64,000 nucleotides of DNA, from the NCBI GenBank assembly GCA_964057225.1, contig OZ059896.1, positions 11,408,001-11,472,000 on the forward strand, in the 5' to 3' direction. Positions 15,141-44,584 of this stretch are shown here, piece after piece. Origin of the DNA: Auanema rhodensis. Lineage: Eukaryota > Animalia > Nematoda. A model generated the notes under the pieces. That model was given only the letters and a program-made list of their open reading frames with translations, ran no database searches and was not told the DNA's origin. The position numbers and the translations under genes are program-made. How positions within the stretch are numbered: the stretch's first letter is position 1; every line of letters starts with the position of its first letter.

Positions 15141-18100
15141 ATGGCTGCTAACAGGTTGTGTTTTTTCCTATCTTTTTTTTAAAATTAAAATATTTATTTT
15201 CAGTTATAAGCGTGTATGTGAAGAGTTGGGGTTCGATTATGAGGAAATTTATCAACTCAGGTAATTTAACAATATTTTTAAAATATACATCTTTGTTTTT
15301 TTAGTAAGCGCATAAAGCTTACCGAGAGTGGTGGTGTTGAGCTCTGCGACCCCGCAATAACCACTTCCAATAGTGGTCCCTCGTCATCGAGGGTTATTGA
15401 AGTTATCACCTTGGATGACAGCGATAATGAGTAAGCTATCATATGATGAAAAAGCATGAAATTTTTTTTTCAGAGAATGGAATCCCGAGATACCATCAAC
15501 TAGTGGAGAACAATTAGGAGGCGGTTCATCCTTCAACGATATTTGTCAAATAAAGGTACGAGCTTTTAAACTTTTTTTTTTTTCATGTTACAATTCTTTT
15601 CACTCTATATCTTTTATTTGATTACATATCTTGAGCAATTTTAAATTCTGCCATCTATTTTTAAACAAATCATCATACATTTGGTGACTTTTTGAAAAAT
15701 AAAATAAAATCTTATCCCAAATCCATGCCATAATATCATTTATTAAATTTTTATTCATTAAAATACACTTAAATTTAAATATTTTGATGCTCAAAAACTG
15801 ACACATTTAAATATTTTGTATTTTCTAAACCATTTCACTTCATCTCTTTTATTTAATTTCATATTTTAAACAATTTTAAATTTTTACCACTACTTTATAA
15901 TTTTTATTTATTAAACTTTTTAATCATTAAATTACACTTAAATTTAAATATTTTGATGCGCAAAAACAGAAACATTTAAATATTTTGTTTTTTCTAAACC
16001 ATTTCACTCCATCTATTTTAAACAATTTTATATTTCTACCACTATTTCATAATTTCATTTTTTAAATTTTTAATCATTAAAAAAAAAAACATTTAAATTT
16101 CAATATTGTGATGCTCAAAAACTGAAACATGAAATTGATTTATATTTTCTAAGCCATTTCACTTCATCTCTTTTATTTAATCACATATCTTGAACAAATT
16201 TAAATTTCTATCACTTTTTCATAATTTCGTTTATTAAATTTTTAATCACTAAAAAACATTTAAATTTCAATATTGTGATGCTCAAAAACTGAAACATTTA
16301 AATATTTTGTATTTTCTAAACCATTTCACTTCATCTCTTTTATTTATATATATTTTAAACAATTTTATAATTCTACTATTATTTAATTTTTATTTATTAA
16401 ATTTTTAAACATTAAAAAAAAAATTGATGCTCAAAAACTGAAACATTTAAATATTTTGTATTTTTCTAATCGTTTTGAAACAAACTAAACATATATTTGA
16501 AAACATTTCAATTAAATAAAAAATAACGACTATAACAAACAAAGAGACATAATAATTTTAAGCAAAAGATGAAACAATTCATATATATTCTTAAAACTAT
16601 TTTTATTTAAACTTTAAAAAAAAAAAATAAAAAAAAGCATGTAAACTGTTATAAATGTTGTTTATTATAGTGGTCACACCGGCGCATAAAACGCACCGGT
16701 CGTTTTACCAACGTGGTCGTTCGATCGCTCACGTTCCCACACTTGGAAAATGTTGATGAACCAATGCATGTTATCATGCCGCGGTTATTCAACGAATTCC
16801 TTGATCGTTGTCTTGCTGAAAGCGGTGTGCCTGATAATTTTTCTGTTTATCAATTGAGCACCCTTCCTTTGAAAAGGGCTCCATATTTATGGACTTTCGT
16901 AGAAGGGAGCATCTGGATGGCGTAGCCATTATGAATGCCATCAGCAAGGTGCAGCAATCAAAACGAGAGGCTGTGATCAGCCAGGCAATGAATATTGAGA
17001 TGTATGTGTTTGATGAAAGGCCAGCGCAGCCAAGCCTGATGCCTGGTGAAGGTAGAGTCGGGTTTTATTTTGACCCCGAACTCAAAATACCTGGAACAAT
17101 TGCCAACACTGACTCACATTGTCTGGCTAGATCAGCAGTTGTGGGAATGTGGAAAGCTGACGAGCTGGCCACTGAAGATGGCGATGAGAAGCGAAGGCTG
17201 CAAAACCTTCGTCGCAATTACATCTTATTGCCAAATCAGCCACACCATATCAATTTATTAAATAGGTGTGGTATTTCTGTAGATTTACCAAATTATAATT
17301 TAATTCATTTAAACATTATTGCCAGCTGTAATACAAACTATAAGTTTGTAGTATATGCTAGACCGCCTGGACAGCGTATGTACACTATCCAGAAAATATT
17401 TAATGAAGCGGCTAGCAAATTGGTAACACTAGGTTACCGAAATAATCACTATGATTGTATTACAGCTGGTAGTCGTTCGAAAATTTTTGATGGTATTATA
17501 TGTCAACACTGTAAGTTATCTTACAATACAGTGTTGCATAGATGTAAAGCCAAATGTAAAACATGCCACACCTATAATTGTAATGCGATGGGGAATGTGG
17601 TTGAGAGTAGCGTGAGGTGTGATAGTTGTAGAGTTTTGTTTAAAACTCAACAATGCTTCATTAGGCATTTGCGAAAAGCCTGCCGAAAATTCAAGGTATT
17701 TTGTGAAAATTTAAAGTTGTACATAACAAGCTTAAATTCAGACATGTGTGGCGTGTGATCACTATCACATGGTCCGTGCTGATAGACCGCACAATTGCAA
17801 TGGAAAATTCTGCAAAAAGTGCGGTCAGACAAAGCCTGAAGAGCACTCTTGTTGTTGGGTTCCACCTAACGACAAGAAGAAGGCTCAGCTAAAAAAGAAG
17901 CAAGAAAAGTTCAAGGTTTGTATTTAACATCTTTACAAGTGTAATGCTTACTTGTTTAAGATTATATTTTATGACTTTGAAACAGTTGTGTTAAAAAACG
18001 GCACAAATGTTCATGAATATGCAGATGAACAATGGCCCAATATGGTTGTGTATAACAAATTTTGTGAAAGTTGTATAGATGCCAATTCCTGTGAGAAATG

Positions 18101-19075
18101 CACAACCAAGGAGGGCCATTTTGGGTACCAACAAGGTGATAGTGAATGGTCTGTAACAGATCGTTTCCTTGATTGGTTACTCAACTTTTCTGAGAATGAT
18201 AATGCAATTTTGATTGCGCACAACGGGTCGCGCTTTGACATACATTTCTTGGTGTCTAGGCTGATAAACCGTGGAATATATCCTGACCCCATTTTAAATG
18301 GGACCAAGATTATTAGCATGGTTGTCAAGCCATTAAGAGGTCAAAACATTAACCATTTATATTTTAAAGATAGTTATTTACTAGTGCCTTTACCCTTATC
18401 AGCGTTACCCAAGGCATTTGGTGTACCTGATATGAGTAAAGGACAATTCCCATACCTCTTTAACCACCCAATAAATTATGGCAAAGTGCTACCATCCTTG
18501 CCGCCAAAGCATTACTATTGTACTGCTAGAATGAAAGCCGAAGACCTAGCTTCATTCAATGTTTGGTATGAGGAGCGTAATCAAAGTGTGTTTGATTTTG
18601 ATGAGGAGCTTCTGGAATATTGTAGGACAGATGTCCGTATTTTAACCAACTGTATGAAAGTGTACATGAAGTTGGCCACCGCCACCACTGGCTGGAATCC
18701 TGTCATACAATGTATGACATTTGCCAGTTTCTCTTTATTCCAGGCAAGTTTTTTAAAATACAAGCATTTTCAAAACTAGTATATTACAGTTGAAAATGAA
18801 CCACATTAAAGAGAACCAAGTGGGTATTCTGCCTGAGACTGGTTATTATGCCGGCCAGAAGCAGAGTATAATTGCCATAAAATACATAAAATGGCTAGAA
18901 CACGGATTAGGCCGCCCATTAATGCATAAGCTTAATGGTGGTGAATTTGTTGTGAGAGTAGATGGCCAACGCTATCTACTTGATGCTTATGACAGTGTGG
19001 CTAATCACGGCTATGAGGTGAGTAATTTGTAATAAATGTAAAAAAAATGAAAAATTTTGTAGTTTAATGGCTGTA
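15141..19075 (+). pseudogene. pPolB of element A, 5' part (exons 1-9)
   Basis: Near-identical to the D copy, with a net 10-bp deletion at about 16838 (frameshift). Cut by element B in the NGC codons. Confidence 0.9.
15760..16470. repeat. About 165-bp degenerate tandem repeat inside pPolB intron 4 (subfamily A)
   Basis: Recurring gatgctcaaaaactgaaacatttaaatattttg: 5 units in A, 4 units in D (53620-54170). Confidence 0.8.
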
Positions 19076-20015
19076 AGTAGAGAGCCGTGCAAAATTTACT
19101 AACCACGCCCCCAAACAGCTGTCAAAAACATACTTTTGGGGGCGTCAGCTGCTAAAAACATACTTTTGGGGCGCGTCAGCTGTCAAAAACATATTTTTGA
19201 GCGTCAGCTGTTAAAATCATATTTTAGGATCATGGTTCATGGATTTTCCTTTTTTAAATATAAAAGTCATGATTTAAAGCATGATTTTTTTTTTTTTTGA
19301 TTTTTTTTTTTAATTTTTTTTTTTTTTTTAAATCAAATTTAAATATGCTTTTTCAAATGTATGTATATATTTTCAATTATTTTTAAATATATTAAGTAAA
19401 AATAAAAATCTTAATTTTAAATATTTAAATTATATTTAAATTTTATATATATATAAATTTTATTTAAACTTTAATTATTTAAATTATATTTAAATTTTAT
19501 ATATATAAATTATATTTAAACTTTAAATTTTATATATAAATTATATTTAAATTTTAAATATATAAATTTGTTTTTAAATTTTATTTATTTCTTTATTATA
19601 TTTATTAATAATGTTTGTTTACTTATTTTGTTTATTTTTTATTGTATTGTGTTTGTATTGTTTTTATTTTAAAGATCAATAAAATTTTTGCATGTAGATA
19701 ATTTTGTTCACCGTACTTGTTATGGGTAATTCAATGGAACACATATCGAAAGTTAATTCGATAAGAACGATATGAAATACCAAAATTTAATGGAACACAT
19801 ATCGAAGGTTAATTCGATAAGAACGACATTAAATTATTAATTTTTGAAATTGCGAATTGTTATTAATTATATTTATTCTAACAAGTAAAGGCTTCAAATT
19901 ATAATAAAAGATTAGTTTTAAACTTTATTTTACTAATATAACAATACAATAACTAAATAGAGCACACATTGAAGGTAAATACAATAAGATTAACAAACAG
20001 TTGCGCTGACCTCAA
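19076..20015 (+). repeat. Left TIR of element B
   Basis: Reverse complement of 33737-34828 up to ttgcgctgacctcaa. Confidence 0.92.
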
Positions 20016-20648
20016 CGCCAGGCATATCGATGGTTAATAAACAGTAATAACTGCACTGTGGGGGTTTAAATATAGTATAATCATTTTAACATTTCAAAAG
20101 TTTTAGTTTCGTAATATAATCATTATTAAATATTAAAGAATGAAATATTTTTTACATATAAAACGTTGGCAGTCATATGTTTTGTGATACAATATGGGTT
20201 TAAAAGTATACTATGATTAATATATGAGCTATTAAGCAAAGTTTAAAAAGCGTAAATGTTTTACAGAGATGGCTGTTGTTTATGGCACAAACGGTAAAAA
20301 TAATGTTTAAAGAGATGTAAAAACTAATTAATATGCAGATTGTTTACAGGTTCAGAGTGCGCCAACTGCTGGCAACTGTCGATGAGATGAGTATATCTGC
20401 ATAAATATGCTGTAAAATCTAATTAATAAAAGAATTTCATCAGCAAACTTGATTGTAACACAATGGGTTGTACTTTACAAAGATCTTTGTATAAAAGGTT
20501 GGCAATTTTGCTACATTTACATTTCAGCTCTGCCGACTATCCGAGGATCCGACGTTTCACCATCTCCTGCCACTCTTTGCCAATCGCCATAGACTGCTCC
20601 TCTCTGCAAGTTTGCCTTATATTTTAGAAAGTTGGATCTTTAGCGGAA

Positions 20649-21234
20649 ATGAAGCGTGCTGTACTTGCTGATGTGACAAATGTTGTGCGCAAATCGCCTG
20701 AACCTGAAGTACCACGACCACCCACACCAGCACCAAATTTCACAAGTTTTGGTATGAACCTTAACTTGTCTTTTTTAAATCTTTAATTTAGATTCACCAA
20801 TAAAGCAGATGGAGATTCTGAGAGAGAGCACTCCACCAAGGAGTGTATTAATGAGACCAATTTGTCTCTGCAAAACTTGTAGGGAATCATTGCAGGTTAT
20901 AGACGAGTATCACTGTTTCAGCCTCTGTATAAAGTGTAGAGGAAGGAATGATGCGTTGGGTCTTTTGAAGGAGTTTCGTCACTATAAGCCCGAAAAGTTC
21001 TCTATTAATGTAAGCTTGCATATTTATTTATTTTCAATTTTATATTTTTTTTAGATGCGCTCTTATAACACCATGACGTGCAAGCAATTGTTGAACAATA
21101 TGGGCTATATTGTTATATATGCAGATGAGGCTACTGTAAAGACTTTTGGTTATAAGCAGAATGTATTCTACTTTAAACTAAGTCCTGAAGCACTCAACCT
21201 GAACATGTTTATCCGCTTTGATCCTTCATTTTGA
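20649..21234 (+). CDS. Spliced 166-aa protein with D-box-like motif, SP/TP sites and Cys/His cluster (element B)
   Basis: Exons 20649-20751, 20792-21009 and 21055-21234 join in frame; a homolog with the same introns occurs in A. Confidence 0.75.
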
Positions 21235-21529
21235 CTACAACAAGCACAAATAGTACAATTGGCGTTTTATTCTTGTTTTGTTATGTGGCATTTTTATATT
21301 CTCAGCCGTAACATTTTTTTTTTCCAGCTCTTGCGAATATCCATCAATGGCTCATCAATTGAGGACGAATGATCAACCAACTGGTAAGAATTTGAAAATT
21401 TGAATAGTCTACATTTTTTTTTTCCAGGTTGAATTGTTGTTTGTATTTTGCTGGTTTTTTATTGTTACATTATGCGATATATCAAATAAATCATTTATTA
21501 TAATTACAATTGTTTATAACATTGAAAAA

Positions 21530-22597
21530 TTATACATTTAAATTTTCTGCATCTATCCATTCATTAAAGTTGTCGGGATATCCACTCCATTTTACAAATA
21601 CTTGACGTTTACCGCTTCGAGTACGCTCTTTTAAAACTTTTTCTATATAGTACTGGTTGCTTTTATTAGTAGCCAAGACAAGTTCAGGTTCGTAGAATAT
21701 TCCCTTTATACGTTCACCATTATAATCTACAAGTTTATACACGGTTGGGTTTCCGGTTACAACCTCATCAATTGTGAACAGCTCCATTGTATATCCAGAC
21801 TCGTAGCTTTTTTCAAAAGTACGCCTATGTTTGCTTATGCGAACAGTATCACCAATTTTAAAGCGGCTTTTAACAGTTGGTGCATATTCTTCAATGAATA
21901 TATTTGCTTTAACATCAATGGGCCGCATTTTTATGGAGCGGTTATAAGATTTGTTTATTCCTTCAACCAAATCATCTAAGATATCAATCCATCGATGATT
22001 ATTCTTGTAATAGAGATATTTCATCATGCGTGTTTTTAAAGTTCTATTTGCTCGCTCCACCATTGCAGCCTTTTGAGGTGAACTTGTAGATCCGTGCAGT
22101 ATGGCAAACTTTTTGAATAGTTTTTCACAATGACTATTATAAAACTCTGTGCCATTATCAGTAATCAACTGAATTGGTATAAAATTCTTGAATAAATTTT
22201 CAAATGCACTAGCAACCTCTATACCACCTTTAGTTTTCAAAGGCCTAACATATAACATGCGTGTATAAACATCAATCATGGTCAACATGTAAGCATAGCC
22301 GTCGTTTAATTTTTTATATTTTTGCATATCAACCAAATCTGCTTGCACTGTTAGAAATCGACCACATCCTCTAGTCTTTCTAGTCTGCATACGCATTCTG
22401 GTTGGTTTATGTCGTGTAAAAGTTTCAGAATCTTGCAAAAAATCATCAACTTGTACCTTTGAAATGCCATGTTTTCGTGCTTGCGATAATAAATTCTTGG
22501 CTGATGTATATGAAGCTGGGTGTTTTATATCGTAATAAATGCTCGCCAAAATATCATTTCCATAATCTAATGTAGAACCTTTTACGACCTTGGCCAT
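21530..22597 (-). CDS. Retroviral-type (rve) DDE integrase with C-terminal chromodomain (B)
   Basis: QADL..IDVYTR..TDNGTEF..VERANRTLK; YYIEKVL..VKWSGYP..NEWI. Confidence 0.95.
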   Translation of the reverse strand: MAKVVKGSTLDYGNDILASIYYDIKHPASYTSAKNLLSQARKHGISKVQVDDFLQDSETFTRHKPTRMRMQTRKTRGCGRFLTVQADLVDMQKYKKLNDGYAYMLTMIDVYTRMLYVRPLKTKGGIEVASAFENLFKNFIPIQLITDNGTEFYNSHCEKLFKKFAILHGSTSSPQKAAMVERANRTLKTRMMKYLYYKNNHRWIDILDDLVEGINKSYNRSIKMRPIDVKANIFIEEYAPTVKSRFKIGDTVRISKHRRTFEKSYESGYTMELFTIDEVVTGNPTVYKLVDYNGERIKGIFYEPELVLATNKSNQYYIEKVLKERTRSGKRQVFVKWSGYPDNFNEWIDAENLNV

Positions 22598-23270
22598 TCT
22601 GTGAGTCTCCTTCTTGTGGTGTGTAATATGATTCGGCGGCAGTATCAAAAGTCTTTGACCTTTTACTTTTGAGTGTACGAACCGGTGATGGTGAATATCT
22701 AATAACAGCTTTACGATGACGAGGCGTTCTAGGTAATATAGTAGAGTCCAAGTCTGTAACAGCCGGTTCAGCTCTAGTTACAACGTCAACTGAATCATTG
22801 TCAGCCGACTCTCTTCTAGTTTGTTTCTTGTTAGAACTTGGTACGCCTTTACTGGCTAAAAACTTTGACAAAACTGAAAATCCATTGGGCTCCGTTTTTG
22901 TTTTATCCAATACAAAATCTAAAATTTTTGTAATATTCGTGTTTGGTACAGCCTCATTATTAATCACAAGTTGGTTATTCTTGTTTGTGCGCACCTCTGG
23001 AAATTTCTCCCACAAATTGTTATACTTTCTTGGCAACTTGTATTCTGGCAATAGAGGTGGATCAGCATTTTCCACTTGTACTGATATGGGCGCATCTATA
23101 CTTTCTCTATAGTTTTTGAGACGAGCAATCAAGTCTTCGTATAGTTCAGCCTTTTTATAGTCGGGTATAGCTCTATTTTCTCGTAAAAGCTTGAGCTCTG
23201 CATCAAACTTGTCTATATTAACTGTTTCCTCGTCGACAGGAATTAGTCGATATTTATGGTTGAGCTTCAT
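22554..23270 (-). CDS. Conserved Polinton hypothetical protein, 238 aa (C-terminal QNGQG..W)
   Basis: ORF conserved in A; starts KYRLIP; overlaps the integrase start. Confidence 0.8.
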   Translation of the reverse strand: MKLNHKYRLIPVDEETVNIDKFDAELKLLRENRAIPDYKKAELYEDLIARLKNYRESIDAPISVQVENADPPLLPEYKLPRKYNNLWEKFPEVRTNKNNQLVINNEAVPNTNITKILDFVLDKTKTEPNGFSVLSKFLASKGVPSSNKKQTRRESADNDSVDVVTRAEPAVTDLDSTILPRTPRHRKAVIRYSPSPVRTLKSKRSKTFDTAAESYYTPQEGDSQNGQGRKRFYIRLWK

Positions 23271-23575
23271 GATTTAAAACCAAAATAGGCAATACCACAT
23301 GTAACTATTGTTTTCAATTGTTTGTGTGAAAGCGTTGCCAATAATGATTTAGCCTTTTCCGGTGTGCGTATCAAAGCTATTTGACGTAATAATGAAGATA
23401 TGGGCAAGAGGGTTTTATATTCCTTGTTAGTTAAAAGAAAATTATTATTTTTCACAATATTAAATACAATTTCAACAATAATTTCAATTTGTGCAAAAGA
23501 AAATGAGGAAACAGAACAAGGAGTTTTGGCGCAAGAAGACAAAAAGTTGAAATTTGACAAAATACGACCACTCAT
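23267..23575 (-). CDS. Conserved Polinton hypothetical protein, 102 aa
   Basis: Near-identical ORF in A (41411-41719); ATGA overlap with the next gene. Confidence 0.8.
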   Translation of the reverse strand: MSGRILSNFNFLSSCAKTPCSVSSFSFAQIEIIVEIVFNIVKNNNFLLTNKEYKTLLPISSLLRQIALIRTPEKAKSLLATLSHKQLKTIVTCGIAYFGFKS

Positions 23576-23587
23576 TGAACAAGCACT

Positions 23588-24235
23588 TTAAACACTAAAC
23601 ACATTTCTGGCAACATAAACAATAGGGTTCTCCGCTGTTATATCAGATAGTATACGCTGCTTCTCACTTGTTAAAGGATGATTGTCAATCAGTAAATGAC
23701 TATAGGGAGTAGACATTGCATCATCATACGCCTCTAGAGCATTTTTGAAACGTGGCCCAAATAATTGCTGCAGACAATTACGTATTTGTAATATATCTGA
23801 ATGACTTTTCATCAGTATTATATATGTACTATTGATTCGACTGGTCCTGTCCAGTTGAAATGCCGCTTGCACAAGATTAAACACTGCCAAATTCCAGTGA
23901 TGAGCCCATACTGTAAAAATGTTGTTGAGTAATTCCTTTGCTGCTTTATTCGATGAAAAAAAGTTCATCAAATCATCCAGCACTAGTATAGTATTTACTC
24001 CCTTTTGTTCTTTTATCAAATCAGGATCAGGAGGCCCTTGAATAATTATTAAACGCTCATCATTTATTGGTACACCTGACGATGACCCACATTGACTGAA
24101 CCAGAATATTCTATCAATGGGGACGTTGAAAAACTTTTCAGTATTTTCACATATGTGCTTTATGAGGGTTGTTTTACCGCATTGGGTAGCACCTATTACA
24201 GTTGTCTGACTGGGTAGTTTGAAGCTGAAAACCAT
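23588..24235 (-). CDS. A32/FtsK-HerA-like DNA packaging ATPase (B)
   Basis: Walker A GATQCGKT, Walker B ILVLDD, and RINSTYIIL. Confidence 0.93.
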   Translation of the reverse strand: MVFSFKLPSQTTVIGATQCGKTTLIKHICENTEKFFNVPIDRIFWFSQCGSSSGVPINDERLIIIQGPPDPDLIKEQKGVNTILVLDDLMNFFSSNKAAKELLNNIFTVWAHHWNLAVFNLVQAAFQLDRTSRINSTYIILMKSHSDILQIRNCLQQLFGPRFKNALEAYDDAMSTPYSHLLIDNHPLTSEKQRILSDITAENPIVYVARNVFSV

Positions 24236-24314
24236 AATCAACCACTCGTAAATGTACCTAAAATGCAAATGATTTCATTTGCAATAGTGTACACGTATCA
24301 AGTGGTGGTTTGTC

Positions 24315-25172
24315 ATGGATGATTTTTACATTACTCTTCCATCATCAGTTGACTCTGAAAAAAGTAATACATCATCAGTGTTTCTTACCAGATTACCTGA
24401 AACACTAAGGCTACGCAATAATAGATATTGCATTGGGCTGACAGACATCATTTTTCCTTGTTCTATATTAAATGTTCAAAAAGATTTATCTTATACACTA
24501 CGTTTTTCCAATAGAAAATTTATTCTACACTTGCCTAAAGGCAACTATGCAAATGGTGATGAAATAATACGCGGAATCAATGCTGGAAGAGAATCATTTA
24601 TCGCCAACAATACAAAGCCTCTTGGCGCTGAGGAAGAAGCACGTATAAAAAGTTTAATAGATAAAGATGAAGATGTAAAAAAATGGTATAATAATCGCCA
24701 GGCTGAGGCTAAGCTAGTGGAGGAAATGCTCGCAGACGCCACATTTCAGTTTAACAAAACATTGCAGCGCATAGAGTTTGTAACAAGCAAGCGACTATTA
24801 ATGAATGCAACGCTTGGTGATGATTTTGCATATTTTCTTGGTTTTGAAAATAAAAACATCAACGATACAATAATAGCCAGGCGTCCCATTGATTTTTCAA
24901 ATAACATTAATACAATGTATATATATTGTGATATTGTAGAATATTCCATTCTTGGTAATGTGAAAGCTAATTTACTTGCATGTTTGCCTGTACCACCTCC
25001 TACTGAATTTGGTAAAATGATTGCCAAAACATTTAATCCTATTCGTTATGTACCAATCACTAGACAAACACTCGATACCATACGTATTGAAATTTTAGAT
25101 GAATTTGGTCGTCCTATGCAATTTAATTACGGTTCTACAGTTGTTACATTGCATGTTAAAAATATGAAATAA
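24315..25172 (+). CDS. Minor capsid protein (penton) (B)
   Basis: FYITLPS..NT.S.F.TRLP; YIYCDIVE..GNVKANLL; FNPIRYVP; I.D.FGR..F..G..VVTLH, as in Polinton pentons. Confidence 0.88.
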   Translation: MDDFYITLPSSVDSEKSNTSSVFLTRLPETLRLRNNRYCIGLTDIIFPCSILNVQKDLSYTLRFSNRKFILHLPKGNYANGDEIIRGINAGRESFIANNTKPLGAEEEARIKSLIDKDEDVKKWYNNRQAEAKLVEEMLADATFQFNKTLQRIEFVTSKRLLMNATLGDDFAYFLGFENKNINDTIIARRPIDFSNNINTMYIYCDIVEYSILGNVKANLLACLPVPPPTEFGKMIAKTFNPIRYVPITRQTLDTIRIEILDEFGRPMQFNYGSTVVTLHVKNMK

Positions 25173-25177
25173 ACGTT

Positions 25178-25642
25178 TTATTCAACAGTTATACAATACC
25201 ACATTTTTATTTTCGAAGGTTTAAAAGATAGTTTAGGGCAGTTTTGTTTGTCGCTCGGCTCGTGTTGTGAATGTTCTCCGTCACTATTGCTGCGGCATCT
25301 TTTTGATTGGGTTGAATGTACAAACTCCTCAGCTTTTTCAAAGGGTTTGCTGGTATCATTTCCATCACCATCTTCACCATTCGTTCCATTATTATTATGA
25401 ATACGCCGAATATGACGCTCACAATTGAATCTTGTTCCAAAAGTTTCACTACAATGAGGGCACAAACGTCTACGAACACCATCCAAATGTCCATATTTTT
25501 GAATAAAGTCAGCATTGCTGATATAATTGTTACATATGGGTTGAATCCCTGCATGTCTTTTCAAAACGTGATCACTAAAATGCTTGGTTGAAGAAAATAT
25601 TTCCTTGCATGTACCACAATATTTGTTACATAAAAGTTCCAT
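25178..25642 (-). CDS. Double C2H2 zinc-finger protein (B)
   Basis: CGTCKEIFSSTKHFSDHVLKRH and CPHCSETFGTRFNCERHIRRIH; conserved in A and D. Confidence 0.8.
   Translation of the reverse strand: MELLCNKYCGTCKEIFSSTKHFSDHVLKRHAGIQPICNNYISNADFIQKYGHLDGVRRRLCPHCSETFGTRFNCERHIRRIHNNNGTNGEDGDGNDTSKPFEKAEEFVHSTQSKRCRSNSDGEHSQHEPSDKQNCPKLSFKPSKIKMWYCITVE
25207..25554 (-). CDS. Overprinted hydrophobic/membrane protein, 115 aa, alternative frame inside the C2H2 gene (B)
   Basis: Open in all three copies and more conserved than the C2H2 frame across the 3' half. Confidence 0.7.
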   Translation of the reverse strand: MQGFNPYVTIISAMLTLFKNMDIWMVFVDVCALIVVKLLEQDSIVSVIFGVFIIIMERMVKMVMEMIPANPLKKLRSLYIQPNQKDAAAIVTENIHNTSRATNKTALNYLLNLRK

Positions 25643-25683
25643 TAGAGGAAAATGAAAAACGACCACACGCAATCAACCCACTT

Positions 25684-25854
25684 TTATATAATGAGCAATA
25701 ATATGACTAGTGTTGTACAAAAGCCCAATCCCAATGCTATACCTTTAATAAATGGCACTGAAATACATTTCAACATTCTCCTGTATAAAGGCGCTGGTTT
25801 AGATTGCTCCAACGTGTATTTGACACATAATTCACAGTGACAAGGAATATTCAT
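25684..25854 (-). CDS. 56-aa microprotein with CxCxxC and C-terminal TM helix (B)
   Basis: MNIPCHCELC...GIALGLGFCTTLVILLLII; same length and frame in A and D. Confidence 0.72.
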   Translation of the reverse strand: MNIPCHCELCVKYTLEQSKPAPLYRRMLKCISVPFIKGIALGLGFCTTLVILLLII

Positions 25855-25895
25855 AACTGACCACGTAATGTAGCAGATTATTAATGACAAATTTC

Positions 25896-26351
25896 TTATA
25901 TAGTAGCCAATTTATAGTCGAATACTTTATGCATAAACGCTTTAATAAAGACATCATCATTTTTCAATAGTTTAAAAAATGAACAAATGCTTTCAAATGA
26001 ATTACCAGCCGACAACATTAATATTACAAATACCACATAGCCACCACAAGTGTATTCAATTAAACGTTGTGGTTTGCAAGTATTTATTTTTACCTTTTTA
26101 TATTTGGCCAGATAATTTTGAATGTACTTGTTCATTTTATATCCCAAGCTACAGAAAAAATAGGCTTGCTTGTTACGGACAAAGATGACCTGCCAATGTG
26201 TGCCTGGCTTATCATGTGTGTCAGTATTTACGACAAGTGCAAAGTTTTTACGACGCGTTTTGGGTAGAGTATCAGCGCTATATACACCGAGGAATAGTTT
26301 CCGAGTGCTGGGGACAGATTGCAATAGTGATACTATTTCAGACGAATACAT
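25896..26351 (-). CDS. Adenain-like cysteine maturation protease (B)
   Basis: VNTD..PGTHW and Q....TCGGY. Confidence 0.9.
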   Translation of the reverse strand: MYSSEIVSLLQSVPSTRKLFLGVYSADTLPKTRRKNFALVVNTDTHDKPGTHWQVIFVRNKQAYFFCSLGYKMNKYIQNYLAKYKKVKINTCKPQRLIEYTCGGYVVFVILMLSAGNSFESICSFFKLLKNDDVFIKAFMHKVFDYKLATI

Positions 26352-26402
26352 TTTAGTAGAATGATCTAGTGTAACTTTTGTATTGCGCGCGTGCGGTTCG
26401 AT

Positions 26403-26855
26403 ATGCCGCACCTCCTTTTGGATGTCAACTCTATTCAATGGACAACACTTTTAAATCAACAAATGGGTGGCGCCCCATTTAGCGGAATGATGTTTCAACG
26501 TGGAATGCAGAGGGGTCATGGTTTGGGTGGTATTTTGGCAACTTTGGCATCATTTCTACCACGCATCATTCAATCACCTATAGCCCAAAATCTCATCAAT
26601 GCCGGAAGAAACGCCTTATCCAGTGCTGTAAGCAATAGTCCAGTTGTAAATTCACCTCTTGGCGGACAGTTGCTGAAAACTGGTAATGAAATTGTTAATG
26701 GGGTGCTGAAAGGCGATAATATCAAGGAAACTCTTAAAACGGCCGGCCGGCAAGCTATACGAGATCTTACTGGCTTGGGCAAACGGCGACGACGCAAAAC
26801 CACAAAACCTCATAAGCGGTTGTGCATCACTCGTGAGCGGTCGTTTCACATTTAA
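26403..26855 (+). CDS. Putative virion core/membrane-active precursor with protease-site motifs (B)
   Basis: QQMGG, QRGHGLGG and LTGLG-KRRRRK; amphipathic LATLASFLP; stop abuts the MCP ATG. Confidence 0.75.
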   Translation: MPHLLLDVNSIQWTTLLNQQMGGAPFSGMMFQRGMQRGHGLGGILATLASFLPRIIQSPIAQNLINAGRNALSSAVSNSPVVNSPLGGQLLKTGNEIVNGVLKGDNIKETLKTAGRQAIRDLTGLGKRRRRKTTKPHKRLCITRERSFHI

Positions 26856-28190
26856 ATGGCTAAATTGATAGATTCAAAATCAGCACAAGCCCTTTTACCT
26901 AATATCAACTATGGTGATATACCTGCGTCGGCATTAGGTGTTGAATCCACTCGTACTGTACAAGTCCCTTTGAAAAATACTTTTCTTCCTCAAGGACCAT
27001 GGGAATTTGTTATAGCTCAAAATTCCAAATCATTCCTCAATCTGAGAAGATGTTGGTTGAATGTAAAATTTAAAATTGTAACCACAAACGGTGATCCAGT
27101 ACCAGACAACCTTGTTTTTGCACCATGTCAACAATTTGCTGCCAGTTTAATACATTCGTATCATTTGAAAATTGGCGATGTTAGCGTGTATGACTCTACC
27201 GTGAATCATGCCTATAAAACATACATCGAGAATATTTTAATGTATAGCAACGATGTTAAAGAGAGCAAACTTGCCATATCAGGCTATTATGCTGATAGAT
27301 ATATAGATAATGCATCCAGTGCTGGATTTAGAACGCGTCAAACGCTTGTAAAAAATGGCATATTGTGTGAGATGGCTGCTCCCGTCAGTATCGACCTATT
27401 TAATCAAGAGCGACTGTTTGTAAACTATTCAAAAATGGAGCTAACTGCATATCCAAACCGTGATAACTTTTTAATTGACACTCTAGGCTGGAATAATGAA
27501 AACAAGGATACTACATTAAAGGAGGAGTTTCCAAATTTGAAAGTAGATATCAGCGATGTACATTTGCTCATTCAAGAGTTTGATCTAAACGCTGGATTAG
27601 CTATGGCTATAGAAGATAAACTCGCAAAGGATCGAATACACTACCCCATGACATCAGTGAAAATGCGCTCTTATTTCATAGAAGGAGGCCGCTTGGATTC
27701 ACCTAATAATATATTATTCACGTCTCATACACCGAAACGTGTTGTAGTAGGTCTTGTTGGCGCACACGCCTATAATGGTACTTTTAAACATTCGCCATTC
27801 AACTTTAAACCGTTTGATTTGAAAAATATATACTTGACGCTCAACAATAGGGTAATACCTACCCGTCCTTATAATTTAGAATGGCGATCTTCCTATGCCA
27901 CAGCATATATTGACATGCTCGAAGGTTTGGGACTTGGTCGTACAGATTCATCCAATGGTATTACACCAGCAATGTATAAAGCTGGTTTCACATTTTTTGT
28001 ATTTGATATTTCTCCTACTGTGCATTCGTCAGAGTTATTTGATGTTATACGACAAGGTAATGTAGCCTTGAAATTGGAATTTGGTCAACAAACGCCGCAA
28101 GAGGGCTTATATGCAATTGTTTATGCAGAGTATGACTCTATTCTTTCAATTGACAACAATCGTGCTCCATATATTGATACCAGTTTGTAA
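26856..28190 (+). CDS. Major capsid protein (double jelly-roll), 444 aa (B)
   Basis: GPWEF, TPKRVVVGLV..AYNG..KHSPFNFKPF, GFTFFVFDISP and IVYAEYD, typical of Polinton MCP. Confidence 0.92.
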   Translation: MAKLIDSKSAQALLPNINYGDIPASALGVESTRTVQVPLKNTFLPQGPWEFVIAQNSKSFLNLRRCWLNVKFKIVTTNGDPVPDNLVFAPCQQFAASLIHSYHLKIGDVSVYDSTVNHAYKTYIENILMYSNDVKESKLAISGYYADRYIDNASSAGFRTRQTLVKNGILCEMAAPVSIDLFNQERLFVNYSKMELTAYPNRDNFLIDTLGWNNENKDTTLKEEFPNLKVDISDVHLLIQEFDLNAGLAMAIEDKLAKDRIHYPMTSVKMRSYFIEGGRLDSPNNILFTSHTPKRVVVGLVGAHAYNGTFKHSPFNFKPFDLKNIYLTLNNRVIPTRPYNLEWRSSYATAYIDMLEGLGLGRTDSSNGITPAMYKAGFTFFVFDISPTVHSSELFDVIRQGNVALKLEFGQQTPQEGLYAIVYAEYDSILSIDNNRAPYIDTSL

Positions 28191-28328
28191 TGTATGTAAT
28201 AAAATTCTTTAAAAGATTTAAGAATAAAATTTATTAATACAACTATTTTTAAAAATAAATACATGTACAATGATAAAATTTTATAAATACAAATATATAC
28301 AAGATAAAAATTTATAAATTCAAATATA

Positions 28329-31300
28329 TTAAACACAATAACCGTAGGGTAAAGTACTATAATCTTGTAGATAACAAAGTTTATCCATTACAACTCTAGT
28401 ACTTTTTGTCATATCCATTGTGGATATGGCACCGAGTTGCCTCTTTAACAATGTCGTATTGGTTTTTAAAACCAATTTCTCTCCATCCATAACGAGTCCG
28501 CGAACCAGTCGCTCCATACTTTCAAAGTTTACCACTGACGCTGCCGTGTGGTCCAACGTCTGAAAATTATAAAATTATTTGAAAAGTCAAAGCTCGTACT
28601 TACCACTCCCTTTGCCTTTGTTACATATTTCACATCACCAGCTGCATTTACAAGTTTATAACTATAAACTTTTGCTGCTGGTGACACAAACTTGGTCATT
28701 GACCAACCATCGGGTATTTCAGAGGTTAGTTTACCTAACCATTCACCCTTCATATCCTCAATTGGATCTGGCTCATCCAGGCACCTTTGATAAATTAGTG
28801 AATCCGTGTCTAAATAATGTAAGTTTAAATTGAATACAAGTATAACATTACCTGTATACACCAAATTCTTTCCAATTTTCTCCATTGCCTTATACAATAG
28901 TAGCCTTGCATGAGCGGTTGTATAGGCCGCAATAGCTACATTTGTAAAAGGCGGTGGTGCCAAATGTGAATCCTCTGGTACTGTTGTGCAGTACGCAACA
29001 TTATCCACAATTTTGAACCCAGTGAGTTCCCTTGCAGGATCAGTAATGATCCTACCAATTTCTGGGTCCTCAACACCAATAATCTTGGTTTGGGCTTTAT
29101 CAGGTCTTTGACCCATTTTACCCCAGACACTATAAGCAAATTTGTAATGTATTGTTTTAAAAAGTTTACAAACCTATTTAGCTGCAGTTTGGCAATGCTA
29201 CGCATGGCAGCATTCTTCTCAATTTTATTGCTCTCCAGAGCAACACCAGTGTTCTCCTCGTGCTCTTGGAGATAAATCACCTGTAAAATTCTATTTAATG
29301 TAATACTTTTATTAAAACATACCTTTTCTTCCTCTGTCATGTTTGGCTTTGGCCAGCCCGACGCCTCTTGTTTAATTTTTATGTACTTTTGTACAAATTC
29401 TTTAAACAGGCCGCCTTGTTGCCATTCTTCCCAATGCCACACCTCATGCACATTAAGCACTTTATAGCCACGTTGTATGGCACACTCGAGCTCAACATGT
29501 GTCACGGTTAGATGCAGCTTTCTAGCATTTACATCATTCTGGTGCTCACATGTTACATTTTTACTTTTGACTGCACAAGTGCGGCAGTTTGTAAAAATAA
29601 GTTTACCGCCAATACGTGTGCCTAATACAGGGTACAGCAAATTTGTGGGTGCAAGCACGTCACATTTTACTAGCCCCTTGTATGGGCAACATGTCTCAAA
29701 GCTTTTGAAACCCTCAGTAATAACTTTGGGATTACCTACAGGGTAATAGGCATCAAAGGCTGTGACATATGGATATAGTGAACAAAAGTCCACATACTCG
29801 AGCGAGTATCTATCCGAAGCTTGTGCCAAAAGCTTATATGTCTGGGTGCGGCCACCGGTAAAGGCATCTCTAGGTGCCAAGCGTGTAACAACATTTGTTT
29901 CACGCATAAATTTCGCCATTTCTTCATTGGCCGAAATTTGAGCATTAATTTCGTGCTCCCACACTGTGGTAACACTAATGCCTTGGCTTTGAATTGCTTC
30001 AAGCCTTTTCATGGTTTTATCATAAACCTAAATTTTAAAAGTTAAAATGATTAAAAAAGTCACAATTACCTCTTCCATTGTTTCACCATTTCTGCCTGGT
30101 GCTATAGCGCTCTTGTTGGTGCACTGGGGGCAACCATGGTAAATGCAACCATTAATCTACAAAAATTTGAATTTTTTACATTTATCACAAATTACTCACC
30201 TCATAGCCATGATTGGCAACGCGGTCATAAGCATCGAGTAGATAGCGATGGCCATCTACTCTCACTGCAAATTCGCCACCATTAAGCTTATGCATTAATG
30301 GGCGCCCCAATCCTTGTTCTAGCCATTTTATATACTTTATGGCTATTATACTCTGCTTTTGACCGGCATAATAACCAGTCTCGGGCAGAATACCCACTTG
30401 GTTCTCTTTAATATGATTCATTTTCAGCTGTAATATACTAGTTTTGAAAATGCTTGTATTTGAAAAAACTTGCCTGGAATAAAGAGAAACTGGCAAATGT
30501 CATACACTGTATGACAGGGTTCCAGCCAGTGGTGGCGGTTGCCAACTTCATGTAAACTTTCATACAGTTGGTTAAAATACGGACATCTGTCCTACAATAT
30601 TCCAAAAGCTCTTCATCAAAATCAAACACTCTTTGATTACGCTCTTCATACCAAATATTGAATGAAGCTAGGTCTTCTGCTTTCATTCTAGCAGTACAAT
30701 AGTACTGTTTTGGTGGTAAAGATGGTAACACTTTGCCATAATTTATTGGATGGTTAAAGAGGTAAGGAAACTGTCCTTTACTCATATCAGGTACACCAAA
30801 TGCCTTGGGTAACGCTGATAGGGGTAAAGGCACTAATAAATAACTATCTTTAAAATATAAATGATTAAATTTTTGACCTCTTAAAGGCTTGACAACCATG
30901 CTTATAATCTTGGTCCCATTTAAAATTGGATCAGGATATATTCCACGGTTTATCAGCCTAGACACCAAGAAATGTATGTCAAAGCGTGAACCATTATGCG
31001 CAATCAAAATTGCATTATCATTCTCAACAGAGTTGAGTAACCAATCAAGGAAACGATCAGTTACAGACCATTCACTATCACCTTGTTGGTACCCAAAATG
31101 GCCCTCCTTGGTTGTGCATTTTTCGCATGAATTGGCGTCTATACAACTTTCACAAAATTTATTATACACAACCATATTGGGCCATTGTTCATCTGCATAT
31201 TCATGAACATTTGTACCGCTTTTTAACACAACCGTTTCAAAGTCATAGAATATAATCTTAAACAAGAAAGTATTACACTTGTAAAGATGTTAAATACAAA

Positions 31301-33529
31301 CCTTGTATTTCTCTTGCCTCTTTTTTAACTGATCCTTCTTCTTGTCGTTAGGTGGTACCCAACAACAAGAGTGATCTTCAGGCTTTGTTTGCCCACACTT
31401 TTTGCAAAATTTCTCATTGCAATTGTGCGGTCTATCAGCACGCACCCTGTGATAATGATCACAGTTTTCACATGTCTGAATTTAGTCATGTTAAATTTTA
31501 TATATATTTTTTAAATTACCTTAAACATTCGACATGTTTTTCTAATATGCCTGTCAAAGCATTGACGAGTTTTGAACAAAACTCTACAACTATCACATCT
31601 TATGCTACTCTCAACCACATTTTCCATCGAATTACATTTTAAGGTGTGGCATTTCTTACACTTGGCTTTACATCTATGCAACACTGTTTTGTAAGATAAT
31701 TTACAGTGTTGGCATATAATACCATCAAAAATCTGTGATCTACTACAAGTTGTAATACAGTCATAATGATTATTTCGGTAGCCTAGTGTTACCACTTTGC
31801 TAGCCGTTTCATTAAAGATACGCTGAATAGCGTACATACGCTGTCCAGGTGGCCTAGCGTATACTACAAACTTATAGTCTGTATTACAACTTGCAATAAT
31901 ATTTAAATGGTTCAAATTATAATTTGGTAAATGTACAGAAATACCACACCTATTCAATAAATTGATATGATGTGGTTGATTTGGCAACAAGATGTAGTTG
32001 CGACGAAGATTTTGAATCCTCCGCTTCTCAACAACATCTTCTGCTGCCTCTTCATCGGCTCTCCACATTCCCACAACTGCTGCTCTAGCCAGGCAATGAG
32101 TGTCAGTGTTTTCAATTGTGCCAGGTATTTTGAGTTCGGCATCAAAATAGAAACCAACTCTACCTTCACCAGGCATCAGGCTTGGCTGCACTGGTCTCTC
32201 ATCAAACACATACATTTCAATATTCATTGCCTGGCTAATTACAGCCTCTCGCTTTGATTGCTGCACCTTGCTGATGGCATTCATGATGGCAACGCCATCC
32301 AAATGCTCCCTTCTACGGAAATCCATAAATATGGATCCCTTTTCAAAGGATGGGTGCTCTATTGATAGACAAAATAGCGCTTTTTGTTTATCTGGCACAC
32401 CACTTTCAGCAAGGCACCGATCAAGAAACTCATTAAATAGCCGCGGCATGACAACATGCATTGGCTCATTAATGGCTTCCAAATGTGGGAACGTGAGCGA
32501 TCTAACGACCACGTTGGTGAACCGACCAGTGCGTTTTATGCGTCGGTGTGACCACTATAATACACACTTTTTATAATGGTTATACGCTTTTAGTTTAAAT
32601 ATAAATAATTTTTGTTTATAACTTTTAATAAATTTACTTTTCTTTAAATTATTTTTATTAATGTTTAAAAATAAATGGCATTTGATTTTTAAATATAAAG
32701 TTTTTTTTTTTCAACTTTGAAAAAACTTTTATAAACATTTGTTAATGTTTAAAAATTAATGAGAAGGTCGAGATGGTGTTTTATTATTTTACTAGTTCAA
32801 AATGTTTGAAATATTTATAATTTGTAAGAATTCAAAATTGGTTGAAAGAAAGATAGATAGTGAGATGAAATGTAAAGATTTTAAAATGAATGCTGTTCAA
32901 AAGAATGAATATGTAAATTTCAAAATACTTGCAATTTGTTTGATAAAAGATATAGATTGAGATGAAATGTAAAGATGAGAAAGAGAGAATTTTATGAATG
33001 CAATTGAAAAAGAGAAATAAATTTCAAAATGTTTTCAAAATATGCAACTGGAGCAAGAGAAAATTTCATGTTTCAAAAGATATATTATGAAATGATATGT
33101 AAATAAAAGATCGCACCTCTATTTTACAGACATCGTTGAAAGCCGCTCCATATCCGACTTGCCCTCCACTGGTTGATGGGGTAGCGGGATCCCATTCTCT
33201 TAAAAAGAAAAAACTAATTGTTATAATTTTTAATATCGCTTACTCATCACTGTCATCCAAGGTTATTACTTCAATAACCCTTGATGATGAGGGCCCACTG
33301 TTAAAAGTGGGTGATGTGGGCTCACAGAGCTCGATCCAACCAGCCTCGGTAAACTTTATACGTTTACTAAAAAACAAAATATATATAAAGATTCAAAATA
33401 TTGTTAAATTACCTGAGCTGATTAATCTCTTCATAATCAAATCCTAGCTCTTCACATAAACGTTTATAACTGAAAAAAGAAAAAGTTTACAAACAAATAA
33501 ACAAAAAGACACAACCTATTAGCAGCCAT
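28329..33529 (-). CDS. Protein-primed DNA polymerase B, 14 exons (B), apparently intact
   Basis: YDFET, AHNGSRFD and YCRTDV exonuclease motifs; DFCSLYP, KLQLNSVWGK and YTDTDS polymerase motifs after splicing. Confidence 0.93.
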
Positions 33530-33736
33530 TGTACCTTGATATAATGAATATATCAGTCTACACATTGCTGTTGGCATTGTAATTTGTTATGTAACATGGA
33601 TTTGGGTACAGCTGTCAAAACTAGCAGTTGCGATAAACTTTAAAATAAATAAGCTTATTGAATACATCTGTTTTTATTGTCCCCGTCGGATTAATTTTTG
33701 TTATTAGTTCTTATTAAATTAACTTTATGCGTTTCA

Positions 33737-34828
33737 TTGAGGTCAGCGCAACTGTCTGTTAATCCCGTCGTATTTACCTTCAATGTGTGCTCTATTTAGT
33801 TATTGTATTGTTATATTAGTAAAATAAAGTTTAAAACTAATCTTTTATTATAATTTGAAACCTTTACTTGTTAGAATAAATATAATTAATAACAATTTGT
33901 AATTTCAAAAATTAATAATTTAATGTCGTTCTTATCGAATTAACTTTCGATATGTGTTCCATTAAATTTTGGTATTTTATATCGTTCTTATCGAATTAAC
34001 CTTCGATATGTGTTCCATTAAATTTTGGTATTTCATATCGTTCTGATCGAATTAACTTTCGATATGTGTTCCATTAAATTTTGGTATTTCATATCGTTCT
34101 TATCGAATTAACTTTCGATATGTGTTCCATTGAATTACCCGTAACAAGTACGGTGAACAAAACGATATACATGCAAAAATTTTATTTTCTTTAAAATAAA
34201 AACAATACAAACACAATACAATAAAAAATAAACAAATCAAGTAAACAAACATTATTAATAAATATAATAAAGAAATAAAGAAATAAATAAAATTTAAAAA
34301 CAAATTTATATATTTAAAATTTAAATATAATTTATATATAAAATTTAAAGTTTAACTATAATTTATATATATAAAATTTAAATATAATTTAAATATTTAA
34401 AGTTTAAATATAATTTATATATATATAAAATTTAAATATAATTTAAATATTTAAAATTAAGATTTTTATTTTTACTTAATATATTTAAAAATAATTGAAA
34501 ATATATACATACATTTGAAAAAGCATATTTAAATTTGATTTTAAAAAAAAAAATTTTTAAAAAAAAAATCAAAAAAAAAAAAAAAAAATCATGCTTTAAA
34601 TCATGACTTTTATATTTAAAAAAGGAAAATCCATGAACCATGATCCTAAAATATGATTTTAACAGCTGACGCTCAAAAATATGTTTTTGACAGCTGACGC
34701 GCCCCAAAAATATGTTTTTGACAGCTGACGCGCCCCAAAAGTATGTTTTTAGCAGCTGACGCCCCCAAAAGTATGTTTTTGACAGCTGTTTGGGGGCGTG
34801 GTTAGTAAATTTTGCACGGCTCTCTACT
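33737..34828 (-). repeat. Right TIR of element B
   Basis: Inverted copy of 19076-20015 with extra repeat units. Confidence 0.92.
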
Positions 34829-39343: not shown

Positions 39344-39808
39344 ATGGAACTTTTATGTAACAAGTATTGTGTTACGTGCAAGGAAATATTTTCATCAGTC
39401 AAGCATTTTAGTGATCACGTATTAAAAAGACATGACGGGATTCAACCCGTATGTAACAGTTATATCAGCAATGCTGACTTTATTCAAAAATATGGACATT
39501 TGGATGGTGTTCGTAGACGTTTGTGCCCTTATTGTAGTGAAACTTTTGGAACAAGATTCAATTGTCAGCGTCATATTCGGCGTCTTCATAATAGTAATGG
39601 AACGAATGGTAAAGATGGTGATGGAAATGATACCAGCGAACCCTCTGAAAAAACTGAGGAGTTTGTACAGTCAACCGAACCAAAACGATGCCGCTGCAAT
39701 AGTAACCGAGAATATTCACAACACGAGCCGCGCATCGAACAAAACGGCGCTGAACTACCTTTTAAACCTTCGAAAATCGTAATGTGGTCTTGTATAACTG
39801 TTGAATAA
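39344..39808 (+). CDS. Double C2H2 zinc-finger protein (A)
   Basis: Homolog of 25178-25642. Confidence 0.8.
   Translation: MELLCNKYCVTCKEIFSSVKHFSDHVLKRHDGIQPVCNSYISNADFIQKYGHLDGVRRRLCPYCSETFGTRFNCQRHIRRLHNSNGTNGKDGDGNDTSEPSEKTEEFVQSTEPKRCRCNSNREYSQHEPRIEQNGAELPFKPSKIVMWSCITVE
39432..39782 (+). CDS. Overprinted membrane protein (A)
   Basis: Homolog of 25207-25554. Confidence 0.7.
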   Translation: MTGFNPYVTVISAMLTLFKNMDIWMVFVDVCALIVVKLLEQDSIVSVIFGVFIIVMERMVKMVMEMIPANPLKKLRSLYSQPNQNDAAAIVTENIHNTSRASNKTALNYLLNLRKS

Positions 39809-43768: not shown

Positions 43769-44362
43769 TCAAAACGATGGATCAAAACGGATAAGCATAT
43801 TCAAGTTGAGCGCCTGTTGACTTAATTTAAAGTAGAACACATTCTGCTTATAACCAAAAGACTTGACAGTTGACTCATCAGTATAAATGGCAATGTAACC
43901 CATATTATTCAACAATTGTTTTGATGACATGCTAGAATAGGAACGCATCTGTAAAAGAAAAAATAATAATTAGAATTAATAATTTTATAATCTCACATTG
44001 ATTGTTGAATTTTCAGGTTTATAATGACGGAAAACTTTTAAAAGCCCTAAGGCATCATTCCTCGCTCTACACTTGACACAGAGGCTGAAACAGTGGTACT
44101 CGTCTACGACTTGCAATGTATCCCTACAAGTTTTGCAGAGACATATTGGTCTCATAACTACAGGCTGTTGTGGAGAGCTATCCTTTGAGATTTGTACCTG
44201 CTTTTTTGGTGTGTCTAAACAAAAAATAATTAATAACAAAAATAAAACCTTACCAAAGAATGTGGCAGCAAAGTTGGGTCCTGGTGTGGGTGGTCTTGGA
44301 ACATCCGGTTCCGGTGTCGAAGGTACAATATTCTCTACATCAACAAGAGCGGAACGCTTCAT
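43769..44362 (-). CDS. Spliced D-box/Cys-cluster protein (A)
   Basis: MKRSALVDVEN..RPICLCKTC..HCFSLCVKC..FKLSQQALNLNMLIRFDPSF; three exons as in B. Confidence 0.75.
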
Positions 44363-44460: not shown

Positions 44461-44584
44461 GTTGGATCAGATCGTCGGCTTGTTGGCAGAGGTGGATCGG
44501 CGAGAAGACTTGGTGGCGGAGCTGGATCGGAGAGTAGACTTGTTGACAGAGCTGGATCGTAGAGTCGACTTGTTGGCGGAGCTG
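44461..44584. repeat. 30-bp tandem repeat, about 4 copies
   Basis: gctggatcggagagtagacttgttgacaga-like units. Confidence 0.85.

Follow-up and report, generated by a model that had tools for sequence, protein, structure and literature searches.

In nematodes, Maverick/Polinton elements hold intron-bearing and poorly conserved cargo in the slot between the left terminal inverted repeat (TIR) and the integrase, as described in the accessible part of Widen et al. (bioRxiv 10.1101/2022.07.12.499685). Conserved nematode Polinton genes have been listed by Jeong et al., the accessible portion of whose account leaves other open reading frames (ORFs) unassigned. Viral regulators of the APC/C include orf virus PACR, chicken anemia virus Vp3/apoptin, HCMV pUL21a and HPV E2, and the available parts of two articles (PMC13524340, PMC7307157) describe these regulators as mimicking APC11, binding APC1, degrading subunits or sequestering co-activators; the term D-box is not used in the available part of the former. 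For the D-box (destruction box) itself, the structure of Acm1 with Cdh1 explains the preference for R1, L4, D/E6, V/I/L7 and N9, and small residues at P3 and P5 and a proline at P-1 are also preferred (He et al., PMC3690534, available part).

The gene described here occupies this slot in a window of 64,000 nucleotides from the nematode Auanema rhodensis (contig OZ059896.1; all positions are those of the window). The element that carries it, element B, is a Maverick/Polinton, having both the TIRs with a target-site duplication and the expected core gene set. Its 12-nt ends are identical and the same 6-mer flanks both sides. Pfam searches identify pPolB pieces, an integrase with rve and chromo domains, an adenoviral-type protease (Peptidase_C5, below the cut-off) and weak matches to ATPase families; the capsid calls (ORFs of 444 and 285 aa) are based on size and position, a Pfam match being absent. 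The best named relatives of the integrase are nematode ones (Auanema at 69% across part of the length, Caenorhabditis at 41–46%). Element B (19076–34828) contains no ORF for a herpesvirus-like fusogen such as Caenorhabditis Mavericks carry, and no unoccupied stretch that could house one.

The surroundings are complex. At least two Maverick subfamilies are present over positions 13300–64000, as copies and fragments nested in one another; element B interrupts element A between 19075 and 34829, and more element ends begin at about 13326, 13634, 47376, 51390 and 62140. The pPolB region is broken into several ORFs (28529–32461, minus strand; also 16889–18779, 49512–51394 and 54463–57773). One 245-aa piece has equal length in three copies, and the breaks common to the copies suggest that the polymerase gene has introns and did not decay separately in each. 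A 154-aa C2H2 zinc-finger ORF (25178–25642, minus strand) lies between the 285-aa ORF and the protease (below the Pfam cut-off) and has copies at 39344–39808, touched by RNA contigs of three runs, and at 61294–61758; an ORF of 115–116 aa overlaps it in a different frame. Upstream of the second copy of the gene under study (copy A) is a 236-aa ORF (45759–46469, minus strand) that has no solid Pfam match and presumably resembles the C-terminal part of a non-LTR retrotransposon protein; the left TIR of element A, expected near this ORF, was not found there. A fragment of the host's gene for heparan sulfate N-deacetylase (PF25119, E 1e-27) lies at positions 241–711 (minus strand).

The gene, referred to here as the D-box gene, sits between element B's left TIR and its integrase in a slot of about 1.5 kb, and shows the position, the introns and the low conservation of nematode Maverick cargo. 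A blast search of the gene region against the window returns a single other copy, copy A, which is diverged (Table 1). Identity between copies A and B is 73–79% in the gene region and 81–94% in 16 other 500-nt blocks. The GC content of the gene is 0.36 and is not raised. In copy A, the 5' leader contains an imperfect tandem repeat of about 30 or 60 nt (44463–44584, minus strand), and no upstream ATG occurs in 286 nt of it.

Table 1. Features of element B and of the two copies of the D-box gene
Feature	Position	Strand	Remarks
Maverick/Polinton element B	19076..34828	.	15.75 kb; TIRs of ~0.98 kb; 6-bp target-site duplication
TATAAA box	20490..20495	+	upstream of copy B; candidate promoter element, putative function
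D-box gene copy B	20649..21234	+	first to last coding exon
Exon 1, copy B	20649..20751	+	start codon, D-box, Pro-rich block with two S/T-P sites; dN/dS 0.22
D-box-like RAVLADVTN	20655..20681	+	residues 3–11 of copy B
Intron 1, copy B	20752..20791	+	40 nt, GT..AG, GC 0.23; joint in X1, loose end at 20751 in X2
Exon 2a, copy B	20792..20878	+	SPIK and TPPR sites; Cys cluster begins
Cys/His cluster CLCKTC-x10-HCFSLCxKC	20863..20937	+	predicted zinc-binding; whole only with the 43-nt piece retained
43-nt alternative coding intron (exitron-like)	20879..20921	+	GT..AG, GC 0.42; removal shifts the frame
Exon 2b, copy B	20922..21009	+	long frame, purifying selection, dN/dS 0.04
Early stop of the 66-aa short form	20930..20932	+	reached when the 43-nt piece is removed
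Intron 2, copy B	21010..21054	+	45 nt, GT..AG, GC 0.16; joint in X1, X2, X3
Last coding exon, copy B	21055..21234	+	59-aa conserved C-terminal part; dN/dS 0.07
3' UTR intron, copy B	21384..21427	+	44 nt; joint in X1
AATAAA	21485..21490	+	candidate polyadenylation signal
Integrase-chromodomain gene	21530..22597	-	neighbour, tail to tail with the D-box gene
D-box gene copy A	43769..44362	-	second Maverick subfamily; ATG at 44362; long form 168 aa, short form 77 aa
Introns of copy A	44253-44215, 44127-44085 (43 nt), 43996-43949	-	all three joints in one 800-nt contig

Both copies begin with MKR and carry, at residues 3–11, a string of the form RxxLxDVxN: RAVLADVTN in copy B and RSALVDVEN in copy A. 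This confirms the claim of an earlier note on this DNA that both fit RxxLxDxxN despite differing variable positions. R1, L4, D6, V7 and N9 are kept between the copies and the other four positions all differ; the kept five are exactly the consensus ones, an outcome of 1 in 126 if the kept positions were random. P1, P4, P6, P7 and P9 fit the structure-based consensus RxxLx[DE][VIL]xN, and the misfits are a non-preferred Val at P3 (copy B) and Lys at P-1 (both copies). Shuffling the N-terminal 55 (B) or 57 (A) residues 20,000 times yields RxxLxxxxN at frequencies of 0.0099 (B) and 0.00045 (A) and the extended RxxLx[DEN][IVL]xN at 0.0002 (B) and 0 (A); these values, like the background counts that follow, are taken at face value, uncorrected for the fact that the earlier note came from a scan for anything striking. 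The 54 ORFs of at least 100 aa in the window (10,402 aa) contain RxxLxDxxN once, in the D-box gene, and RxxLxxxxN three times (gene A and two protease copies). A D-box-similar pattern has 12 matches in the 627,374 six-frame residues of 80 other integrase loci.

The D-box lies in a Pro/Ser/Thr-rich N-terminal tail, whose 55–57 residues comprise 10–11 Pro, 9 Ser/Thr and 3–4 Lys, and beside S/T-P sites. Four such sites occupy matching places (16, 26, 36 and 48 in B; 16, 26, 38 and 50 in A), and three of the four show a Ser/Thr swap between the copies; their count alone is marginal (shuffle p values of 0.046 and 0.060). The full CDK sites reported at first sight, SPIK and TPPR in B and TPKK in A, are present, but only one of the two in B is shared, since A has SPQQ at the place of TPPR. 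SPIK and TPKK arise only once intron 1 is spliced. A KEN box is absent from the protein in both copies, as is GxEN (read by eye); LxCxE is absent from the C-terminal parts, and the N-terminal part contains no Cys.

It is unlikely, if less so than for the other rivals, that the D-box-like string is incidental. The gene would then be an orphan cargo working through its Cys cluster and C-terminal domain, for instance as a regulator of element genes or as a selfish cargo of the toxin/antidote type, and exon 1 would be kept for a Pro-rich ligand motif or a basic start. Indeed, the Pro-rich block PEPxVPRPPTP (20697–20729, plus strand), which we take to be a possible SH3/WW ligand or phosphodegron, is near-invariant between A and B and better kept than the D-box, so that the conservation of exon 1 is not special to the degron. 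The motif is moreover seen in two copies only, and the known cargo of the slot, WASP proteases and KRMA kinases, has no reported tie to the APC/C in the accessible literature. Viral D-box predictions are also common: they include several KSHV proteins, yet lytic replication is APC/C-independent according to a title (PMC7307157, available part). Against an incidental string stand the coincidence of the kept positions with the five consensus ones, the rarity of the motif by shuffle and by background, and its setting in a Pro/Ser/Thr-rich N-terminal tail beside S/T-P sites.

A spliced protein of 166 aa had been proposed in the earlier note. The two-intron frame and its RNA joints agree with this proposal, but a third, frameshifting intron of 43 nt had been missed, and the 166-aa protein is therefore only one of two possible products. 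Five public runs (X1–X5) cover part of the window; four come from one study and were only guessed to be RNA, and joints at GT..AG ends show that they represent spliced RNA. Copy B was compared with X1, X2, X3 and X5, and copy A with X1–X4. The 43-nt GT..AG joint at 20879–20921 of copy B is found in X1 and X2, and at copy A one 800-nt X1 contig skips 39, 43 and 48 nt at places matching the introns of copy B; for intron 1 of copy B (20752..20791), the aligner put the X1 joint 7 nt earlier. Among the pieces listed, the 43-nt piece is removed in three of the four informative contigs and apparently kept in the fourth, evidence that consists of contigs rather than reads from one study, at a depth of 3–7, and from which no ratios are derivable. 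Once the two other introns are removed, keeping the piece gives a frame of 166 aa (B) or 168 aa (A); its removal cuts inside the third Cys codon, takes away the greater part of the Cys cluster and shifts the frame, leaving 66 aa (B) or 77 aa (A).

The contig that apparently keeps the piece comes from X4 and shows, on copy A, 8 and 4 differences with 73 letters between. Copy B, computed as lacking intron 1 but still containing 29 nt of the piece, gives exactly this pattern, whereas the spliced form would give 24 differences; X4 was compared with copy A only, and the 29 letters inside the piece compare with a bridging bar of 31 letters set by the tool. From this one contig, with its 29 letters inside the piece, it is likely that the retained form exists in RNA, and the contig could also be an unfinished transcript.

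The short form retains the D-box and all four S/T-P sites. Its end points differ between A and B (77 and 66 aa), so that its tail is not conserved, and two further introns follow the early stop. A different frame, which would have left the spliced product long, was considered and rejected: copy A has an ATG giving 94 aa, and copy B has none.

Purifying selection acts on the long frame. Rough dN/dS values between A and B are 0.22 over the first 27 codons, 0.56 in the linker, 0.18 in the 43-nt piece, and 0.04 and 0.07 in the two parts after it (about 0.06 together), compared with 0.16 for the integrase, 0.05 for the ATPase and 0.18 for the protease. Strong purifying selection on the 166-aa frame implies that the long form has been translated and selected. 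An untranslated first exon, which the earlier note had named as a finding that would count against it, is likewise unlikely, because exon 1 has a dN/dS of 0.22 and is both transcribed and spliced.

The 43-nt piece differs from ordinary introns of the gene. Its GC content of 0.42–0.47 is exon-like, whereas five other introns examined have 0.15–0.23; the coding-region introns apart from it measure 39–48 nt. Its donor and acceptor hexamers are identical in A and B, a similar donor–acceptor pair occurs nowhere in 5,514 nt of seven core ORFs, and synonymous differences near it number 4 of 14 against 55 of 92 in the rest of the gene (Fisher p 0.04, a post hoc test on rounded counts). Taken together, these four features weakly favour a kept switch over chance cryptic splicing. 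We regard as improbable the explanation that the D-box is real but that the element does not use the 43-nt splice as a switch, the splice being either host cryptic splicing, through a donor and a perfect nematode acceptor that arose by chance in the exon, or a host silencing route. The splice sites do arise from codons of conserved residues (C-R and C-F-S), and protein conservation alone could thus keep them; depth is also low (3–7) and confined to a single study. However, both sites are letter-identical although synonymous sites elsewhere in the gene differ at 0.47–0.74 between copies, both copies splice the piece, and the seven core ORFs contain no similar pair.

The Cys/His cluster, of which six Cys and the His are all kept in A and B, is predicted from this pattern to bind zinc. 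Both of its halves, CLCKTC and HCFSLCxKC, had been read correctly, but the spacing between them is x10 and not x9. The adjacent CxxC pairs, CKTC and CxKC, exist in both copies in the long form only. When the last exon is folded alone, the predicted structure is helix-strand-helix-strand-helix (pLDDT 72.9); a model of the C-terminal region that covers the Cys region, with intron 2 read through, is unusable (pLDDT 38). Structure searches with the last-exon model give no match in Foldseek (best E 1.1 among viral entries and 1.8 in the PDB) or in VIA (best Z 2.1, rmsd 4.4, 43 aligned); on the strength of this model, the searches show neither a new fold nor its absence.

Relatives of the D-box protein were sought widely. 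Word searches of 5.8 billion proteins were empty both with the 125-aa ORF of copy A (lengths 68–219) and with the two-copy alignment (lengths 69–224), and phmmer over 1.84 billion representatives gave no match at E up to 0.001. Scans of viral contigs with the D-box gene and with the integrase were empty, as were scans of metagenome contigs with exon 2. In tblastn, six exon translations against the 80 integrase-bearing loci kept of 164 gave a best E of 0.24; these loci are distant (integrase identity 30–44%) and mostly short, so that the comparison leaves close relatives out. The protein has no family match in Pfam or NCBIfam and no sequence match in the PDB. A PHROG match (E 0.003) was rejected, since it covers a hydrophobic read-through of intron 1. 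With no homologue found, motif conservation rests on the two copies. A literature search, mostly of non-subscription papers, found no link of Polintons or Mavericks to the APC/C or the destruction box, and none of the matches listed, judged by title and the start of the abstract in mostly non-subscription papers, concerned alternative splicing in Polintons. Six peptide motifs of the gene are absent from the accessible supplements of Jeong et al. (mainly coordinate tables) and of PMC8502044, and the available part of PMC11161782 contains nothing on such a gene.

The position of the gene, its two diverged copies, the splicing of its three coding-region introns, purifying selection on the long frame and the motifs are established. 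Building on these, our tentative reading, which we place somewhat below an even chance, is that of an accessory gene in the cargo slot with a D-box through which its protein is likely a substrate for the APC/C of the host; retention of the 43-nt piece would be required for the full form, which is predicted to bind zinc. The D-box would be bound by Cdc20/Cdh1 and the protein cleared in late mitosis and G1; its activity would thus fall in S/G2, a time at which the cell offers nucleotides and replication factors, and the S/T-P sites may be CDK sites that tune this clearance. Removal of the 43-nt piece could be the default of the integrated element, yielding a 66/77-aa stub or a target of nonsense-mediated decay, and retention would give the working protein, whose C-terminal 110 aa may bind zinc and may act on a partner from the host or the element. 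On this reading the product would be an Oncoid-like accessory protein, likely timed by the APC/C, with its full form gated by intron retention. More doubtful is a bolder version, in which Mavericks would possess a true early gene with a latency switch: 43-nt splicing would keep the integrated element quiet, and retention would produce a zinc-binding protein of a new family whose D-box, timed by or jamming the APC/C, opens a replication window.

The earlier note had suggested a cell-cycle-timed regulator or an APC/C pseudosubstrate. The fit to the D-box consensus agrees with an APC/C regulator, but the pseudosubstrate part is weakened by the lack of KEN and of any sign of an Emi1-type domain, and in the absence of KEN and LxCxE a substrate fits better than a pseudosubstrate inhibitor. 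In Emi1, a D-box is followed by a zinc-binding region; the Emi1/Rca1 family is characterised by an F-box and an IBR-type zinc-binding region. Inhibition of the APC/C is a poor prospect, whether by an Emi1-like long form or by an abundant short form that acts as a D-box decoy; cyclin levels and nucleotide pools would then rise to the benefit of element replication. In its favour, the order of D-box and Cys cluster resembles that of Emi1, the short form keeps the D-box and four S/T-P sites, and many unrelated viruses inhibit the APC/C, with a rise in nucleotide pools (PMC13524340, available part). Against it, Acm1, Mes1 and OSD1 each have KEN or GxEN alongside the D-box (PMC3690534, available part) and KEN is lacking here, Pfam and PDB searches gave no match to Emi1 or to any zinc finger, and the short form has a non-conserved tail and a stop that precedes two more introns.

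Returning to the favoured reading of an APC/C substrate in the cargo slot, the locus bears on the question of whether the Mavericks of animals are live viruses that run a regulated gene programme. Two handles on it are offered by an accessory gene that is transcribed, has a textbook APC/C degron and carries a splice switch common to two subfamilies. If the reading is true, the strategy of small DNA viruses, which combines linear motifs with a spliced-in zinc region, would extend to Polintons, and a D-box route would be added to the known viral ways of engaging the APC/C; the early-gene and latency-switch version would provide the first Polinton–APC/C link within the searches made. As a caution, Maverick gene models drawn from DNA only can miss the form that is commonest in RNA.

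Among known systems, the gene compares with nematode Maverick cargo. Like the wasp proteases and krma kinases, it occupies the same slot, contains introns and shows lower identity than the core. However, its protein is far shorter and matches no protease or kinase family, the slot measures about 1.5 kb instead of 2–5 kb, its GC content is not raised, and the element has no room for a fusogen. A host homologue and high GC would mark cargo acquired from the host; the searches above returned no homologue for the D-box gene, and its GC content is 0.36. Viral APC/C regulators share with it the trait of being DNA-virus proteins predicted to engage the APC/C, and no sequence relation to them was found. 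Acm1, Mes1, OSD1 and Emi1 combine a canonical D-box with nearby CDK sites, as does the D-box protein (PMC3690534, available part), which differs from them in having neither KEN/GxEN nor a detectable Emi1-type domain.

The Oncoids of adintoviruses and Polintons (Starrett et al., PMC8502044, accessible part) are likewise small accessory proteins with host-type linear motifs beside paired cysteines, and they give published form to the analogy with early proteins of small DNA viruses drawn in the earlier note, an analogy that fails for LxCxE. Oncoids carry this Rb-binding motif, often with a CK2 site or CR1, whereas the D-box gene lacks it and has a D-box instead; they also typically lie upstream of PolB, whereas the D-box gene is next to the integrase, at the end of the element opposite pPolB (PMC8502044, accessible part). 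The word stem 'splic' is absent from the main text of PMC8502044. Differing in both LxCxE and position, the D-box gene is not filed as an Oncoid. In adenovirus E1A (12S/13S) and polyomavirus small and large T, early-gene splicing includes or drops a zinc-binding region while N-terminal linear motifs are kept. The D-box gene has no sequence match to these, the removal of its 43-nt piece shifts the frame and truncates the protein, and its motif points to the APC/C rather than to Rb or PP2A. In the Drosophila P element, regulation of a single intron, the third, determines whether the product is full or truncated; in the D-box gene the polarity is reversed, retention leading to the full protein, and the gene concerned is an accessory one rather than the transposase.
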